Source: Escherichia coli (lineage in GTDB: Bacteria; Pseudomonadota; Gammaproteobacteria; Enterobacterales; Enterobacteriaceae). Taken from it: a stretch of DNA of 64,000 nucleotides. Shown here piece after piece: positions 38,655 to 46,072 of the stretch. The notes under the pieces were generated by a model. It did no database searches and had not been told where the DNA came from. It saw only the letters and a program-made list of their open reading frames with translations. Within the stretch, counting starts at the first letter, position 1; each line of letters begins with the position of its first letter. The stretch is from the NCBI RefSeq assembly GCF_046105845.1, contig NZ_CP151004.1. One strand, 5' to 3'. The position numbers were made by a program, and so were the translations under genes.

Positions 38655-39735
38655 GTCGTGATGTGAACTGACTCAGGAACCTATCAGATTGAGAGTTACC
38701 GTTCTACTATGAGGACCGAATCCTTATATAAAACACTGAGGTAACTCTCATGCTTCATCGTGACAATCTCGCCAGCAAATTCTAAGCTGACTTGCTCAAT
38801 CTGGCTAATGAAGGTGCTATGGATACACAGATAAACCACAGGTGAAATGCCACTCAGCTTAAGAATCACGCAGCTAGTGTTCCTGGCTATGGTTACTTGT
38901 TCACTCTCGCTCACGGTTAGCATATACGAAAACGGTTCTTGTAACGAGGACAAAAATAAGTCAGACCAAAACCACATGGAGCTTTAAACACGGCTCGTAT
39001 AATTTATTAGCAGCGATTTATTTTTACTCTTCTTTAATTAATCATCATGCTTAAATATTTTTTAGCACACGATTATCGCTTCACTAACATTTTAGTTTAC
39101 ATTGATTCCCAATTGACAATAAAAAATTGTTAATAAGTTTTTGCGAAAAATAAAAAGTGTTGAAATACTCTCCAGTAAACGAATGCAAAATAAACAAACT
39201 AAGGTTTACAAAAAACAAAAACTATTCAAAAGAATATTTTTAATTTATTAGCAGAGTCCATTAACAATGGTTTACTCACGAACAGAAAAGTAAAGAACAC
39301 CTTGCAATAATATGTATTTATAAATTCATATCATTGATATTAAACTAATCTTACTTTCTACCCTCCCAACTTCATACACCAAAAAAACAAAGTAAAATCA
39401 ATTATATACACAACAAGGCAATCTCAAAGGAAATAATATTAAATATCTCAAAACTAATAAAAATTACTAAGACATTAGACGTAACACACATCCCACACGC
39501 CCTGTAGCTCATAGCTTTTATATTTATTTTCTCACATCACTGTAGATAAAAACACGCATTAAAAATGACTTGTAGAAAAGCTGCACAATAAATAGTTCAT
39601 ATTTAGTCTGTTGCGTAGAACTACTATTCAAAAAATCTTATTAATGAGATAATGAGATTACATCGATAACGTTCTGATTGCAGGCATACTTATCTGGGTG
39701 TGCCTCTCTTTTTTTACAACTGTACACGGTGGCGT

Positions 39736-40299
39736 ATGACGAGAAAATATCTCACACAGGATGAAGTCTACAGGCTGATGGATGCAGCCCAGAGCATGTC
39801 CTTTCCTGAAAGAAATCGCTGTCTGATTATGATGGCTTTCATTCACGGTTTTAGGGCCAGTGAACTTCTTGATTTACGTTTATCCGATATTGATGCATCT
39901 GGAAAACAACTTAATATTCGGCGTATTAAAAATGGTTTCTCGACAACACATCCTCTTCTTCCTGATGAATATAATTTGATCAAGTTGTGGCTTAAGCAGA
40001 GGAAGTTAATTGAAAACGGAGTTGAAGGAGACTGGCTTTTTCTCTCCCGGAAACGCCGCCCTATCAGCAGACAACATTTTTTTTCTATCATTCGTGAGGC
40101 TGGAAAACGTGCAGGATTAGCTGTAAAAGCACATCCTCATATGTTACGTCATGCCTGTGGTTTTGCTCTGGCTGACAATGGTGTCGATACCCGACTACTT
40201 CAGGATTATCTGGGTCATCGAAATATTCAGCATACTGTCAGATACACAGCCAGTAATGCTGCTCGTTTTAAAGGGGTGTGGAAAAAAAAGCCTCGTTAA
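39736..40299 (+). CDS. Tyrosine site-specific recombinase, FimB/FimE-like
   Basis: ATG at 39736 gives about 187 aa MTRKYLTQDEVYRLMDAAQ...; C-terminal catalytic region HMLRHACGFALADNGVDTRLLQDYLGHRNIQHTVRYT contains the R-H-R-Y tyrosine-recombinase signature, and size and sequence resemble the fim-switch recombinases; gene is visibly AT-rich. Possibly the ipuA homolog (unverified). Confidence 0.85.
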   Translation: MTRKYLTQDEVYRLMDAAQSMSFPERNRCLIMMAFIHGFRASELLDLRLSDIDASGKQLNIRRIKNGFSTTHPLLPDEYNLIKLWLKQRKLIENGVEGDWLFLSRKRRPISRQHFFSIIREAGKRAGLAVKAHPHMLRHACGFALADNGVDTRLLQDYLGHRNIQHTVRYTASNAARFKGVWKKKPR

Positions 40300-40311
40300 A
40301 ACAGTACCTTC

Positions 40312-40327
40312 TGATTCAAAATGTCAG
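40312..40327. repeat. Left inverted repeat of candidate invertible element
   Basis: TGATTCAAAATGTCAG; exact reverse complement occurs at 40574-40589. Confidence 0.85.
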
Positions 40328-40573
40328 ATTCCTACGTTTTCCTCAATTCTTCCATAAAAAAACAGCCCATTCAATTAAATAAAACACATAACATGTTGAT
40401 ATTTCTAGCTAAAGTAAAATAACCCCATGATTTGAAATGATTAATCACAAAGGTCATACCAGTGATTAACTTTTGCTCATATTGTTAAATAGCACAAAAT
40501 TAAAAACAATAAAAATCAAACAAATTAGATTTATATTCCAAGAAAATTAAATATTCAGGCTATTAAACAAAAC

Positions 40574-40589
40574 CTGACATTTTGAATCA
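40574..40589. repeat. Right inverted repeat of candidate invertible element (inside a 31 bp perfect palindrome at 40571-40601)
   Basis: CTGACATTTTGAATCA; the surrounding AACCTGACATTTTG-A-ATCAAAATGTCAGGTT is a perfect palindrome, so this end carries the repeat in both orientations, like paired recombinase half-sites. Confidence 0.85.
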
Positions 40590-40628
40590 AAATGTCAGGT
40601 TTTGTAGCAATGGCGTGGACGAGTCTGA

Positions 40629-41423
40629 ATGAAGAAGCCTCTGGTTATTATCAGTGCCTGTCAGTTCACCAGGCTGGCACTGGAGTCTCTCATCCCAACG
40701 GACAGGTATCTCGTGCGGGTGTACAGCAACGTCACTACAGAGGTTGAATTCATTTTAAAGACCTCCTGTGGCTACCTGTTAGCTGATATCCCTTCGCTTC
40801 CTTCGGGGGAGTTGGTTCTTCTGGCTTGTCTTGTCCGCTTGCGGAGTGATGCCGGGCAATGGCAGGTCTGCCTGACCGGTGACTCCGACTGGTTCGATAA
40901 TGCTCCTGCTGCAAGTCTGTATAACGGCTTCCCACGCATCGGCACCATGCTGACAGCGAGTCGTTATCAGAATCAAATTATCCGCTGGTTACTACGTCCT
41001 TTGCCCGGCGATATGAGTGATTTCTGGCTCCTGACTGCACGGGAGTTGAGCGTGCTTAAGATTCTGATGCAGGGCATGAGTTTCAGTGAGATTGCCCGTT
41101 ATGAACAACGCAGTTCAAAGACCCTGCATGCGATTGCCACACGGGCATTAATGAAACTTGGACTGGGAACTCTGAGCGATTTCAGGCTGCTCTATACGGG
41201 ATGCGGTGACAGCAGAGTGAAACGGAATATACGGCTACATGCAAGATATGTCGGACAACATTCCGCTCATCGACTCACTCAGTATATGCAGAACATGGTA
41301 TCCGGAATTCTTTATCCAGAGAAAGTTGTCGTTGGTGAATCAATAAATTCTGACGCCATATCCGGAAAAGTACTTTCCGGACAAAGAAAAAATATGTCTA
41401 AAAAAAGACCAGGATTGTTATGA
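40629..41423 (+). CDS. LuxR-family transcriptional regulator (C-terminal HTH)
   Basis: 264 aa ORF with ATG start; LuxR-type HTH LTARELSVLKILMQGMSFSEIARYEQRSSKTLHAIATRALMKLGL, closely similar to the HTH of PdeL in this window; no recognisable receiver domain. Confidence 0.8.
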   Translation: MKKPLVIISACQFTRLALESLIPTDRYLVRVYSNVTTEVEFILKTSCGYLLADIPSLPSGELVLLACLVRLRSDAGQWQVCLTGDSDWFDNAPAASLYNGFPRIGTMLTASRYQNQIIRWLLRPLPGDMSDFWLLTARELSVLKILMQGMSFSEIARYEQRSSKTLHAIATRALMKLGLGTLSDFRLLYTGCGDSRVKRNIRLHARYVGQHSAHRLTQYMQNMVSGILYPEKVVVGESINSDAISGKVLSGQRKNMSKKRPGLL

Positions 41424-41522
41424 CACAGCAGCGTTGTTACTACCCCCCACTGCGGCGCATACGGACTCGCTACAGTGTAGGAGCCAAAATATTTCTACTG
41501 CTCTGGGCTGCAGGATTGGGAG

Positions 41523-41549
41523 GCACGCTGTACAGCCTGTACAGCGTGC
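41523..41549. other. Perfect 27 bp palindrome between the two regulator genes
   Basis: GCACGCTGTACAG-C-CTGTACAGCGTGC (13 bp arms); not followed by a T-tract, so it may be an operator or RNA structure rather than a simple terminator. Confidence 0.4.
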
Positions 41550-41576
41550 TGGCGTACTGACATCAGTGAGGGAAGG

Positions 41577-42338
41577 ATGCGTTTCGTTCTTTTCTGTCCC
41601 TCAGGAATTGTACCAGCGCAGTTCGCAGCTCTATCAACCGGTTCTGTCGGCAATGTTACCTGCATCGGAACAGAAGAGGAGTTACGCAATAAATTGCGGC
41701 ACAGGCCACAGAGTGTCGTGATATCGGCAGGGCGACCTGCCGAATGCGCTGAAATGTGGTTCCGATTTTATCGGGATCACTCATTCGTGGTGGTGTTGTG
41801 CGTCGCGCCCTTTTTTCTGCCACCGGATGTGAGTATTTCTGGCGTTCTCAAAAACCTGAGGTTACTGAAACCAGGAATGTCAGTAGAGCGTGTCATCAGT
41901 ATTGCAAATGCCTCTGGTGGGTTTTCAGGACTGAAACATGCAGAAAGCTTGCCAGTTATGGACAGTTACTCTGTCTTTATGAAAGAGGTGAATAACCGCA
42001 CAAAGACAATCGTCATGTCAGAACGCTTCCCGGAAAAGCAAAAGAAGGTGTTGTCGTTACTTCTTGCCGGACACAGCTGGGAATACAGTGCGCAATTTCT
42101 CAAAACGGGGATAAGACAGATATGGCTTACCGAGCAGTCGCTAAAAAAGCGTTGGGGAATACCGGACAGCATGTCATTGCGGGAAGCCCTGCTGCTTGGC
42201 AGCAATAAATTTCACGGTGATGGAAACGCATTGGAAACAACGAATGCCATGACATTGCGTGAAAACGGAAATACCAACAGGTATTCCGTGGTGGTAAATG
42301 CAGGGACGCTGGCTTTATCTCTGCATAAATATAAATAA
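41577..42338 (+). CDS. Putative transcriptional regulator with LuxR-like C-terminal HTH
   Basis: 253 aa ORF with ATG start preceded by GAGGGAAGG; HTH-like segment EKQKKVLSLLLAGHSWEYSAQFLKTGIRQIWLTEQSLKKRWGI; AT-rich. Confidence 0.65.
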   Translation: MRFVLFCPSGIVPAQFAALSTGSVGNVTCIGTEEELRNKLRHRPQSVVISAGRPAECAEMWFRFYRDHSFVVVLCVAPFFLPPDVSISGVLKNLRLLKPGMSVERVISIANASGGFSGLKHAESLPVMDSYSVFMKEVNNRTKTIVMSERFPEKQKKVLSLLLAGHSWEYSAQFLKTGIRQIWLTEQSLKKRWGIPDSMSLREALLLGSNKFHGDGNALETTNAMTLRENGNTNRYSVVVNAGTLALSLHKYK

Positions 42339-42379
42339 GTGGGAAATTGAAATTAGTTACCAGAATGGAGAATTTCTTC

Positions 42380-44980
42380 ATGAAAAACAGTAAGGCATTT
42401 TACCGCAGCGCATTAGCAACAGCTATTGTTATGGCTCTTTCTGCCCCAGCATTCGCTGCTGATAACGCGGTATCAACTACACCGGTTACATTGGATAAAG
42501 ATAAGACAACTCTGGATCAAGATGTTGTTATTAACGGTGATAACAAGATTACAGCCGTAACAATTGAGACGTCAGATTCAGATAAAGACCTTAATGTTAC
42601 TTTTGGCGGTCACGATATTACCGCCGCATCAACGGTAAACCAAGATTTCGTTGAAGGTGTAAAAGTTAGCGGTGACAAAAATGTTGTGATTAATGCTACA
42701 GGCTCCACCATCACAGCTCAAGGTGAAGGCACCTATGTCCGGACTGCAATGGTCATTTCTTCAACAGGCGATGTTGTTGTTAATGGCGGTAACTTTGTTG
42801 CAAAAAATGAAAAAGGTAGTGCGACAGGGATATCTCTGGAAGGGACCAAAGGAAATAATGTAACGCTCAATGGCACAACCATAAATGCTCAAGGTAAAAA
42901 TGATTCGAGCAACAGCTCTACGGCAATTTTTGCTCAAAAGGGTAGCGTATTGGATGGGCATGGCTTTAGCGGTGATGCAACCGACAACATTACCCTTGCT
43001 GGCTCAAATATTATTAATGGCCGGATTGAAACAATACTTATTGCTCAGGAGAATACGGGAACTCATACAGTCAACCTGAATATTAAGGATGGCTCAGTAA
43101 TTGGGGCGGCTAATAATAAACAAACAATTTATGCCTCTGCTTCGGCACAAGGAGCAGGTTCAGCAACGCAAAATTTAAATTTATCTGTCGCCGATTCAAC
43201 CATCTACTCTGATATCCGTGCCCTTTCTGCAAGCGAGAATTCAGCCGGTACCACAACAAATGTAAACATGAACGTTGCCCGCTCTTACTGGGAAGGTAAT
43301 GCTTATGCTTATGCTTATGCTTATGCTTATGCTGATGACGATAAAGCGAGTAGTAATCTGAATATAAATCTTTCCGATGGCTCAGTCTGGAAAGGAAATG
43401 TTGCGGGTAATACGACTACTGGCAGCACCGGTACTACAGAAAACCAGTCAGCAACCGTAAGTCTGTCTGATTCCACCTGGAAAGGTAACGTGGGTGACGG
43501 TCTGGATGGTGGTGCGCGAGTCACGCTGAAAAACTCCAGCTGGACTGGTGATGTCAGCAACGCCAAAACGGCTGTTGTTCTGACGGATGGTTCTGTGTGG
43601 AATGGTGCCATTAACAGCAATCCTGTTGCAGGAAGTCATGCAGTGGCTGCTGCCGGCAGCACTGATGCAGGTACTTTGACTCCATCTACGTTAGCCGGTC
43701 AGACAGTTGCACTTGCCGGCTCCACCTGGAATGTTACCGGTGATTCTTCTGTTCTTGGCGTCACTGCTGTAAACAGCACCATCAGTGTGAAAGATGCCTC
43801 CCTGACAACTCAGGTTCTTTCTGCAAAAGACAGCAATCTTGTTGTTGATGCAGGTACAACCAATGCTCTGAATGTCACAGGGAAAGCTACCGGTAATGTG
43901 ACAGTTTATAACGCTGGTACCGTAGACTTGAAAGATGCAAAAACAGCATTCATTACTGTTGGTGAAGGCAGTGACCTGAAAGCCACAGGCACAACGGAAG
44001 GTGGTCTGTATCAATATGACCTGACACAGGGAGCTGATGGTAACTTTTATTTCGTAAAAAACACGCATAAAGCATCCAACGCCAGCTCCGTGATTCAGGC
44101 AATGGCAGCTGCTCCGGCTAACGTCGCTAATCTGCAGGCTGACACGCTCTCCGCCCGTCAGGATGCTGTCCGTCTGAGCGAAAATGACGAGGGTGGCGTA
44201 TGGATTCAGTACTTTGGCGGTAAACAGAAACATACCACCGCAGGAAATGCATCCTATGACCTGGATGTAAACGGTGTAATGCTGGGTGGTGATACCCGCT
44301 TCATGACTGAAGATGGTAGCTGGCTGGCCGGTGTGGCGATGTCTTCTGCGAAAGGTGACATGACTACCATGCAGAGCAAAGGTGACACAGAAGGTTACAG
44401 CTTCCACGCTTACCTGAGCCGCCAGTATAACAACGGTATCTTCATTGATACTGCTGCACAGTTTGGTCACTACAGCAACACGGCAGATGTTCGCCTGATG
44501 AATGGTGGCGGTACCATCAAAGCTGACTTTAACACCAATGGTTTCGGTGCGATGGTTAAAGGCGGTTACACATGGAAAGACGGTAATGGCCTGTTTATTC
44601 AGCCATATGCCAAACTGTCTGCGCTGACGCTGGAAGGTGTGGATTATCAACTCAACGGCGTGGACGTTCATTCTGACAGCTATAACTCTGTGCTGGGTGA
44701 GGCCGGTACGCGCGTGGGTTATGACTTCGCTGTGGGCAACGCGACCGTTAAACCTTATCTGAATCTGGCCGCACTGAACGAATTCTCTGATGGCAACAAA
44801 GTCCGTCTGGGTGATGAGTCTGTCAATACCAGCATTGACGGTGCAGCATTCCGCGTGGGTGCAGGTGTACAGGCTGATATCACCAAAAACATGGGAGCAT
44901 ATGCTAGCCTTGACTACACCAAAGGTGACGACATTGAGAACCCGCTACAGGGTGTAGTTGGTATCAATGTGACCTGGTAA
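42380..44980 (+). CDS. Autotransporter (type Va) adhesin-like protein
   Basis: ATG at 42380 preceded by GGAG; N-terminal signal peptide MKNSKAFYRSALATAIVMALSAPAFA; passenger with repeated S-x-W-x-G-N/D motifs; C-terminal beta-barrel translocator ending ...GVVGINVTW. Track start 42347 is a TTG. Possibly the upaE homolog (unverified). Confidence 0.85.
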   Translation: MKNSKAFYRSALATAIVMALSAPAFAADNAVSTTPVTLDKDKTTLDQDVVINGDNKITAVTIETSDSDKDLNVTFGGHDITAASTVNQDFVEGVKVSGDKNVVINATGSTITAQGEGTYVRTAMVISSTGDVVVNGGNFVAKNEKGSATGISLEGTKGNNVTLNGTTINAQGKNDSSNSSTAIFAQKGSVLDGHGFSGDATDNITLAGSNIINGRIETILIAQENTGTHTVNLNIKDGSVIGAANNKQTIYASASAQGAGSATQNLNLSVADSTIYSDIRALSASENSAGTTTNVNMNVARSYWEGNAYAYAYAYAYADDDKASSNLNINLSDGSVWKGNVAGNTTTGSTGTTENQSATVSLSDSTWKGNVGDGLDGGARVTLKNSSWTGDVSNAKTAVVLTDGSVWNGAINSNPVAGSHAVAAAGSTDAGTLTPSTLAGQTVALAGSTWNVTGDSSVLGVTAVNSTISVKDASLTTQVLSAKDSNLVVDAGTTNALNVTGKATGNVTVYNAGTVDLKDAKTAFITVGEGSDLKATGTTEGGLYQYDLTQGADGNFYFVKNTHKASNASSVIQAMAAAPANVANLQADTLSARQDAVRLSENDEGGVWIQYFGGKQKHTTAGNASYDLDVNGVMLGGDTRFMTEDGSWLAGVAMSSAKGDMTTMQSKGDTEGYSFHAYLSRQYNNGIFIDTAAQFGHYSNTADVRLMNGGGTIKADFNTNGFGAMVKGGYTWKDGNGLFIQPYAKLSALTLEGVDYQLNGVDVHSDSYNSVLGEAGTRVGYDFAVGNATVKPYLNLAALNEFSDGNKVRLGDESVNTSIDGAAFRVGAGVQADITKNMGAYASLDYTKGDDIENPLQGVVGINVTW
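43301..43330 (+). repeat. Tandem hexanucleotide repeat (GCTTAT)x5 inside the autotransporter gene, encoding (Ala-Tyr)5
   Basis: Five perfect GCTTAT units followed by a degenerate GCTGAT; translated as NAYAYAYAYAYADDD in the passenger domain. Confidence 0.9.
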
Positions 44981-45018
44981 GAATAAAGCAGTCGGTTCCC
45001 CTGTCGACTGTTATACCC

Positions 45019-45083
45019 CCTGCAGGCAGCATACTGCTGCCTGCAGGCCATAAATATCCAGTATTCATGATGCTGGTTTTTTG
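45019..45083 (+). terminator. Palindrome plus hairpin/T-tract downstream of the autotransporter gene
   Basis: Perfect palindrome CCTGCAGGCAGCA-TAC-TGCTGCCTGCAGG (45019-45047) followed by CCAGTATTCATGATGCTGG-TTTTTTG (45058-45083). Confidence 0.45.
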
Positions 45084-45161
45084 CTGATATTTAACCCGAA
45101 CACTCCTGATACAGACTATTAATTCATTTATCTGCGACAGATTTCATTTTCTGGATATATT

Positions 45162-45830
45162 ATGAGTGAACAAATCAAACAGGATATCGATCTGATTGAG
45201 ATTTTATTTTATCTGAAGAAAAAGATTCGTGTTATCCTTTTTATTATAGCTATCTGTATGGCAATGGTGCTTTTATTTCTGTATATCAATAAAGATAATA
45301 TAAAAGTGAGTTACAGCCTAAAAATAAATCAGACAACACCAGGCATACTTGTTAACTGTGATAGCAATAATAACTTTGCCTGTCAGACCACAATGACTGA
45401 AGATGTTATACAGCGAATTACTACATTTTTTCACACCAGCCCAGATGTCAAGAACAGAGAAATAAAGCTGGAATGGTCAGGAGATAAGAGAGATTTACCA
45501 ACTGCTGAAGCGGAAATATCTCGCGTGCAGGCGTCTATCATCAAATGGTATGCGTCAGAATACCATAATGGCAGGCAAGTTCTCGATGAGATACAAACGC
45601 CTTCAGCAATTAACAGTGAGCTTTATACAAAAATGATATACCTGACCAGGAACTGGTCACTGTATCCAAACGGTGATGGCTGTGTCACTATAAGCTCACC
45701 AGAAATAAAAAATAAATACCCTGCTGCCATTTGCCTGATTCTGGGATTTTTTCTAAGCATTGTGATTTCTGTAATGTTTTGCCTTGTCAAAAAAATGGTA
45801 GATGAATACCAACAAAACTCTGGGCAGTAA
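45162..45830 (+). CDS. ykgH: Uncharacterised membrane-anchored protein YkgH
   Basis: 222 aa ORF with ATG start; hydrophobic segments near both termini; position relative to betA and ykgEFG as in K-12. Confidence 0.8.
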   Translation: MSEQIKQDIDLIEILFYLKKKIRVILFIIAICMAMVLLFLYINKDNIKVSYSLKINQTTPGILVNCDSNNNFACQTTMTEDVIQRITTFFHTSPDVKNREIKLEWSGDKRDLPTAEAEISRVQASIIKWYASEYHNGRQVLDEIQTPSAINSELYTKMIYLTRNWSLYPNGDGCVTISSPEIKNKYPAAICLILGFFLSIVISVMFCLVKKMVDEYQQNSGQ

Positions 45831-45931
45831 TAAACAGCATTCTGATAGAGAGTGCCTGTATAAAGCTGAAGTGACAATGACCGGGAAGGGAACCCGTTTT
45901 CAGGAATGGATGCCTGTCTTTTTCACTGTAA

Positions 45932-45960
45932 ATATCCTGGCATTACTAATGCCAGGATAT
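45932..45960. terminator. Perfect 29 bp palindrome between ykgH and convergent ykgG (candidate bidirectional terminator)
   Basis: ATATCCTGGCATT-ACT-AATGCCAGGATAT. Confidence 0.4.
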
Positions 45961-46072
45961 TTAAAGAAGAGGAGCATAACCATGACGGAACGGGGTTAAG
46001 TCAGGTTGTCCTAAACGCTATTTTCAACCTCGTATGCCTTCTTCAGGTTTATGTCCAGACTTCATATCTCTC

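Follow-up and report, generated by a model that had tools for sequence, protein, structure and literature searches.

What does a perfect 27-bp palindrome do between two regulator genes of a pathogenicity island? We addressed this question for one such site in a stretch of 64,000 nucleotides from Escherichia coli, the whole of which was analyzed and is referred to here as the window. The original prediction, made from the letters of the window, had proposed either an operator for a dimeric transcription factor or an RNA hairpin coupling the expression of the two regulators.

The palindrome and its surroundings in PAI-X

According to the RefSeq annotation of E. coli chromosomes that are near-identical (1,915 records of E. 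coli, on which the identity of the locus rests), the site is in PAI-X, a pathogenicity island of E. coli that lies between betA and ykgH with the gene order ipbA/fimX, hyxS switch, hyxR, hyxA and hyxB/upaB. The hyxR gene is driven by a promoter switch (hyxS) that is inverted by FimX, and hyxRAB is described as an operon (PMC6083910, PMC3789825, PMC12922286) and has been handled as a single co-regulated unit (PMC12922286). Both hyxR and hyxA have been tied to nitrosative-stress and macrophage survival, resistance to serum and the length of O-antigen chains (PMC3789825). The genes and the palindrome are arranged as follows.

39736-40299, ipbA (= fimX/hbiF)
40629-41423, + strand, hyxR, a LuxR/GerE-type regulator of 264 aa
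41523-41549, no strand, perfect 27-bp palindrome, GCACGCTGTACAG-C-CTGTACAGCGTGC, with 13-bp arms and a central C, encoding G-T-L-Y-S-L-Y-S-V-L of a small open reading frame (ORF)
41568-41576, + strand, Shine-Dalgarno region of hyxA (GAGGGAAGG), starting 8 nt past the stop codon of the small ORF
41577-42338, + strand, hyxA, 253 aa, NarL/FixJ-like, with a receiver-like domain and a four-helix C-terminal domain in the predicted model
42380-44980, + strand, autotransporter gene (hyxB/upaB allele), 866 aa, the final gene of the hyxRAB unit

The flanking genes had been called regulators, and this description holds: HyxR has a GerE domain match, and HyxA, which has no family match by sequence, gives a predicted model of moderate confidence (pLDDT 63) that matches NarL/FixJ-family response regulators such as StyR, VraR, FixJ and RcsB. 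The 13-bp perfect arms and central C of the palindrome were likewise found as described. It starts 99 nt after the hyxR stop codon (41421-41423), in agreement with the predicted distance of about 100 bp, whereas the predicted 28 bp to the ribosome-binding site does not stand: the palindrome ends 27 nt before the hyxA ATG (41577) and 18 nt before the hyxA Shine-Dalgarno sequence, so that the predicted figure corresponds to the spacing from the start codon.

Canonical intrinsic terminators consist of a GC-rich stem-loop followed at once by a U/T-run. Here the stem is present and the U-tract is absent. The bases 3′ of the palindrome are TGGCGTACTGACATC, a flank also given as TGGCGTACTGAC, in either case with no T-run, and a terminator scan returned no terminator-like site at 41523-41560, so that the earlier statement that this is not a canonical intrinsic terminator was correct. 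REP/BIME-type elements are extragenic and occur in many copies, whereas this site is single-copy, is confined to PAI-X genomes, lies within an ORF and has no Rfam match (scan of 39500-45200 at E ≤ 1).

Perfect inverted repeats with arms of at least 13 bp occurred in 0/100 first-order Markov simulations of the window versus six in the real window; arms of 9 bp are common by chance, at about 3 per simulated window. This raw statistic overstates the surprise of the palindrome, because the palindrome is formed by a tandem of CTGTACAGC (2.0 copies), a unit with a self-complementary core of 8 bp. One copy of the unit alone already forms a perfect 18-bp palindrome with 9-bp arms.

Further symmetric and repeated sequences were observed elsewhere in the window. 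The 12-mer TCAAAATGTCAG is found three times downstream of ipbA (40298-40605), at 40316 (+), 40574 (inverted) and 40587 (+). These copies give rise to 33-nt imperfect inverted repeats, 240 nt apart, which presumably are the published hyxS switch, and also to a perfect 19+1+19 palindrome on the hyxR side (40567-40605). The orientation of the switch element is the same as in the window in 12/12 E. coli loci where it could be located, and the exact 39-bp palindrome of the hyxR side is present in 1/12 of those loci (L005). Within the autotransporter gene, an ATGCTT hexanucleotide tandem repeat (6.5 copies, 43299-43337) encodes AYAYAYAYAYA; the 866-aa hyxB allele of the window compares with a 2,298-nt (765-aa) hyxB annotated in most other genomes. 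Perfect palindromes at 45019-45047 (13-bp arms, 39 nt past the hyxB stop, no adjoining T-run) and at 45929-45963 (17-bp arms, in the ykgH-ykgG gap) are probably terminator or REP-like hairpins.

A conserved small ORF across the palindrome

The original prediction placed the palindrome in a non-coding spacer between the two genes. We find instead that it lies within a conserved small ORF that appears to be translationally linked to its neighbors.

41411-41414, + strand, Shine-Dalgarno-like AGGA, 5 nt 5′ of the ATG of the small ORF
41420-41560, + strand, small ORF, 46 aa, MTQQRCYYPPLRRIRTRYSVGAKIFLLLWAAGLGGTLYSLYSVLAY, with a basic N-terminus and one hydrophobic helix

The ATG of this ORF overlaps the hyxR stop codon (ATGA), its stop codon lies 9 nt 3′ of the palindrome, and the hyxA ATG follows the stop codon after 16 nt. 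RefSeq annotates the ORF only sporadically, as a 'hypothetical protein' (WP_001406335.1). Its product has no Pfam or NCBIfam family match, and a literature search found no paper mentioning it.

Within E. coli, pN/pS is 0.94 for the small ORF, similar to the other two frames, compared with 0.25 for hyxR and 0.39 for hyxA; the value for the small ORF comes from 7 variable codons only and has very low power. We rejected a non-coding reading of this ratio as underpowered, given the conservation of the ORF in diverged loci. The substitution density of the hyxR-hyxA spacer (9/153) is about equal to that of the flanking genes.

To survey diverged loci, we used an exhaustive HMMER search with HyxA, which recovered full-length homologues at 52-30% identity on contigs with the same gene layout. 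A homologous small ORF lies directly 5′ of the hyxA homologue in five further lineages: L016 (HyxA identity 52%), L017 (46%), L018 (41%), L021/L023 (Salmonella enterica, 39%) and L024 (36%, a relative with 37% GC). Across the six lineages, E. coli included, the small ORFs occupy the same position and span 34-48 codons, and the peptide of L021 is identical to an NCBI Salmonella protein. An alignment of five lineages (E. coli, L016, L017, L018 and L021; L024 was found afterwards) contains nine invariant columns (M1, Y18, S19, G21, F25, L37, L40, Y41 and L44), which include R-Y-S-x-G and L-Y-x-x-L. The products have a hydrophobic 19-mer with a mean Kyte-Doolittle value of 1.5-2.1 and an N-terminus with a net charge of +2 to +5. 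Deep pairs of the small ORF have a pS of about 0.7 (saturated), a pN of 0.24-0.42 and a dN/dS of 0.15-0.5, and dN/dS between the two Salmonella loci (L021 vs L023) is 0.28.

The link to hyxA is also maintained. A purine-rich sequence stands at Shine-Dalgarno distance before each small ORF (strong in L017 and Salmonella, weak in L016), and the distance from the small ORF stop to the hyxA-like start is 16-22 nt in four lineages and 1 nt in Salmonella (TGAtATG), with the two overlapping in L024 (TGATG). Salmonella is without a hyxR-like gene, and therefore the conserved unit is the small ORF plus hyxA. The ORF at 41420-41560 is a conserved putative protein-coding gene under purifying selection and linked to hyxA. 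Judged from these sequence features, it would be translated and its product inserted in the membrane.

Upstream of more distant HyxA homologues (L019/L020, 42% identity; L025/L026, 30% identity) we found no recognisable small ORF. The L019/L020 (3501-4707) and L025/L026 contigs are AT-rich, and in L019/L020 a regulator gene of the CaiF/GrlA family comes after the HyxA homologue. The L020 contig carries a Rep3-type replication gene, which suggests that it is a plasmid. Other searches gave the following: a word-indexed homologue search with HyxA returned E. coli only, tblastn of HyxA against plasmids returned mislabelled E. coli chromosomes only, and an alignment-based scan of genome contigs gave no matches other than Escherichia sp. 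MOD1-EC7003 and S. enterica diarizonae. Three apparently distant HyxA matches (P0042-44) were rejected as frameshift-ridden E. coli assemblies.

Several E. coli loci carry changes in this region. Position 41565 is A in the window and in the 99.9% identical locus L001 versus T in all other sampled haplotypes, and the A creates an extra small hairpin, ACTGA-CA-TCAGT (41556-41567), spanning the stop codon of the small ORF. In the urinary-tract isolate E. coli M70 (L003, NZ_CP080118.1, 3135-4200), the IS5-family element ISEc35 lies inside the small ORF and parts hyxR from hyxA; we rejected an insertion hot-spot at the palindrome, as this element is inserted about 10 nt upstream of the palindrome and not in it. 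PAI-X is decayed in two EHEC loci. In O157:H7 FRIK2455 (L005), ipbA is frameshifted, hyxR has an internal stop and hyxB is truncated; in O145:H28 (L008), hyxB is truncated by an IS3 element. In both, hyxA and the small ORF are intact despite the decay of PAI-X.

Symmetry as operator, repeat or hairpin

The lux box has the form CTGTA-N6-TACAG. The palindrome holds CTGTA-N7-TACAG, a resemblance that is a lead and not a test, and as a 13+1+13 dyad it is of the right size for an operator (about 18-20 bp); both neighboring proteins have LuxR-type helix-turn-helix features. It could accordingly be imagined that the dyad is bound by HyxR, HyxA or some other protein of the LuxR/NarL type, acting as a dimer, and that hyxA/hyxB transcription is thereby controlled from within the operon. 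However, the spacing is 1 nt off the lux box, the site lies within a translated-looking ORF, and a promoter scan found no sigma-70-like site within 41254-42600. A search for the same palindrome elsewhere, especially upstream of the autotransporter gene, had been proposed along with the operator, and it leaves a single site per genome: neither the island nor any other part of the 64-kb window, the region upstream of the autotransporter included, contains a further copy or half-site, and a permissive BLAST search (E ≤ 10) of 5,426 E. coli genomes with a 35-mer of the site matched this locus only (listed twice per genome, as the palindrome matches both strands).

Natural variation also breaks the symmetry. 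In an ST131-type haplotype, C→T at 41526 in the left arm (Thr→Met) abolishes the DNA symmetry and keeps a G-U pair in the RNA; among ten aligned haplotypes this is the sole substitution in the 35-nt span. In 541/1,872 E. coli records (about 29% of carriers), the stretch of 35 nt matched by the search holds one mismatch, in or beside the palindrome. A Ser→Asn change (AGC→AAC) in Escherichia sp. MOD1-EC7003 disrupts a central pair, with no compensating change, and weakens the fold to −15 kcal/mol. Conservation of the palindrome does not reach past Escherichia and its closest relatives: the palindrome is degraded or absent in L018, which keeps both the hyxR-like and the hyxA-like gene, and in Salmonella and L024, which keep the hyxA-like gene. 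Moreover, changes in 9-bp copy number, described next, would move the half-sites apart or together by nearly one turn of the helix. The operator that the original prediction offered as one of two possibilities finds no support in these results, and we regard it as highly improbable.

The symmetry coincides with a short tandem repeat.

41528-41545, + strand, 9-bp tandem repeat, two units of CTGTACAGC (Leu-Tyr-Ser twice), with the self-complementary core CTGTACAG and a copy number of 1, 2 or 3 in E. coli

TRF reports a period of 9 and 2.0 copies, and the two units are the sole copies of the self-complementary 8-bp core unit in the window. Among about 1,880 complete E. coli genomes with the hyxR-hyxA junction, about 14 have a three-unit allele and about 8 a one-unit allele. 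We confirmed these alleles in individual loci (one unit in L012/L013, three in L014/L015) on different haplotype backgrounds, and therefore slippage has recurred. The identical 9-bp units of Escherichia may have arisen by copy gain and loss through slippage. One could go further and read the unit as a contingency repeat, in which in-frame slippage between one, two and three copies shifts the helix by one turn and switches the activity of the small protein; the recurrence of one-copy and three-copy alleles across backgrounds is in its favor, as are 49-aa forms among the small-protein clusters on at least three backgrounds. Yet slippage is rare for a 9-bp unit at two or three copies, variant alleles make up only about 1% of the 1,880 genomes, and the relatives hold the same length with non-identical units. 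Such a switch has little to recommend it, and we give it a very low probability.

As RNA, the palindrome forms the strong mRNA fold that had been predicted. The hairpin has a dG of −22.9 kcal/mol (z = −3.8) and ranks sixth among + strand 42-nt windows (top 0.06%), and the one-, two- and three-unit alleles and the ST131 variant all still fold, at −13.6, −22.9, −27.2 and −21.1 kcal/mol. Part of this stem comes with the peptide. Most of the small-protein family has the motif L-[YF]-x-L-Y-x-[VI]-L, and when the synonymous codons of each lineage's peptide were randomized, 7.7-8.5 of 12 in-register pairs remained (6.0-6.5 with the Salmonella peptides); about 8/12 stem pairs are dictated by the peptide alone. 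The observed pairing in each lineage, with P(pairs ≥ observed) under this null, is as follows.

E. coli: 12/12 pairs, P 0.003-0.015, ascertainment-biased since the site was picked for being perfect
L016: 10/12 pairs, P 0.01-0.03, not independent of E. coli (pS 0.45)
L017: 11/12 pairs, P 0.01-0.04
L018: 10/12 pairs, not significant
Salmonella L021 and L023: 8/12 and 6/12 pairs, not significant
L024: 4/12 pairs

In E. coli, L016 and L017, the helix energy is also lower than the peptide requires (P ≤ 0.016, synonymous-codon null). In-register pairing across eight sequences is 83%, versus 12-54% in slid registers, a count for which the structure was defined on one of the eight sequences and three rows are near-identical Escherichia. 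Changes on both sides preserve three pairs (6-30, 8-28 and 10-26), and the covariation score was matched by 0/500 shuffles, a control known to over-call on related sequences. The excess pairing in the codons and the double changes hint at some selection for the hairpin. Overall, these results weakly suggest, and do not prove, an extra selection on the stem that would be limited to the lineage.

It is against these data that a dual use of the sequence has to be weighed, in which, for Escherichia and its closest relatives, the stem-loop would in addition be under selection as a cis-acting element of the mRNA. The hairpin could slow or gate ribosomes, coupling translation of the small ORF to hyxA initiation, or it could act as a barrier to 3′-5′ exonucleases or as a weak attenuator, setting the ratio of hyxR to hyxA/hyxB. 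Its stability, the folding of every allele, the pairing above the codon null in three lineages and the preserved pairs all speak for such a role. The biased E. coli value, the relatedness of L016, the over-calling shuffle control, the uncompensated pair-breaking change in MOD1-EC7003 and the absent U-tract speak against it, and its strength declines with distance from E. coli: minimum free energies drop off from −23 to −19.2, −12.5 and −5.9 kcal/mol, and no significant hairpin is present in L018, Salmonella or L024, all of which conserve the gene pair. In addition, hyxRAB is treated as one co-regulated operon (PMC12922286). We consider a dual use possible, though doubtful.

The explanation we prefer, and think fairly probable, is that the palindrome encodes part of a predicted small membrane protein, the product of a conserved and under-annotated gene, and that in Escherichia the 9-bp repeat and a few favorable codons perfected it. 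It would code for the C-terminal portion (…G-T-L-Y-S-L-Y-S-V-L-A-Y) of the hydrophobic helix in a 46-residue protein, whose gene would sit between hyxR and hyxA as part of the phase-variable hyxRAB unit of PAI-X. The symmetry would have three sources: the family-wide motif, whose usual codons CTG TAC are self-complementary; the two identical 9-bp units in Escherichia; and the flanking codons for Thr (ACG) and Val (GTG), which add a few more complementary positions. Ribosomes coming from hyxR would read the small ORF, by way of the ATGA overlap and its own Shine-Dalgarno sequence, and would be delivered near the hyxA start, so that the palindrome is most likely neither a protein-binding operator nor a free-standing regulatory element. 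The hairpin would then be a by-product that is melted by translating ribosomes and at most tunes expression in the Escherichia lineage; we infer that it has no function of its own.

A more elaborate proposal would make the small ORF and hyxA a conserved two-gene module, consisting of a small membrane protein and an atypical NarL/FixJ-like regulator, downstream of FimB-type invertible switches in both PAI-X and the Salmonella T1-antigen locus, with the Escherichia hairpin gating the hand-over of ribosomes to hyxA and the 9-bp copy number tuning helix length and stem stability. Taken as a whole, this proposal is speculative and we rate it as unlikely.

Relation to known systems

The palindrome shares with lux-box operators a dyad of about 20 bp or more and CTGTA…TACAG half-sites. 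It differs from these operators in lying outside a promoter, in having one more base of spacing, in being unique in the genome and in not being kept where the regulators are kept. Intercistronic stem-loops that set differential expression within operons, such as the malE-malF REP hairpins and the stem-loop of papB-papA processing, offer a second comparison. As in these cases, a stable GC-rich stem-loop that lacks a U-tract stands between a regulator gene and the genes downstream of it, whereas the palindrome is inside a translated-looking ORF, single-copy and not conserved across homologous loci. The case of the palindrome also calls for caution, in that a statistically striking perfect palindrome can be largely the by-product of a repeated peptide motif written in self-complementary codons.

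KdpF, CydX and MgrB are operon-encoded small membrane proteins of Enterobacteria. Like them, the product of the small ORF is shorter than 50 aa, has a single predicted hydrophobic helix, has a gene that lies within an operon or overlaps one, has often been missed by annotation and appears translationally linked to its neighbors. It differs from them in having no sequence relationship to them and in that its partner would be a cytoplasmic NarL/FixJ-like protein. Published work on hyxR and hyxA, as well as standard annotation, takes the hyxR-hyxA gap as empty. With a small-protein gene in that gap, published insertions in or deletions of hyxR may have hit the small ORF and hyxA too, through polarity or lost translational coupling.

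The closest counterpart is found in the Salmonella enterica T1-antigen locus (described in PMC11294581, where STM0718 is related to HyxA and STM0717 is given no link). The Salmonella locus differs in having no palindrome (6-8/12 in-register pairs, not significant) and no hyxR-like gene, and in placing the small ORF stop 1 nt from the hyxA-like start. It shares a homologous 48-aa protein (RYSTGAKIFLLL…LYQVLTY), encoded directly before STM0718 and positioned between a FimB/FimX-type invertase switch and the HyxA homologue; from gene order only, this ORF is probably the gene annotated as STM0717. For HyxA, the small gene in the hyxR-hyxA gap would mean that it may have a partner in the membrane; the T1-antigen locus has the same pair of genes. 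As a palindrome, the site is ordinary. The small ORF-hyxA module, which PAI-X has in common with the Salmonella T1 locus, is a new finding of modest weight at the level of annotation.
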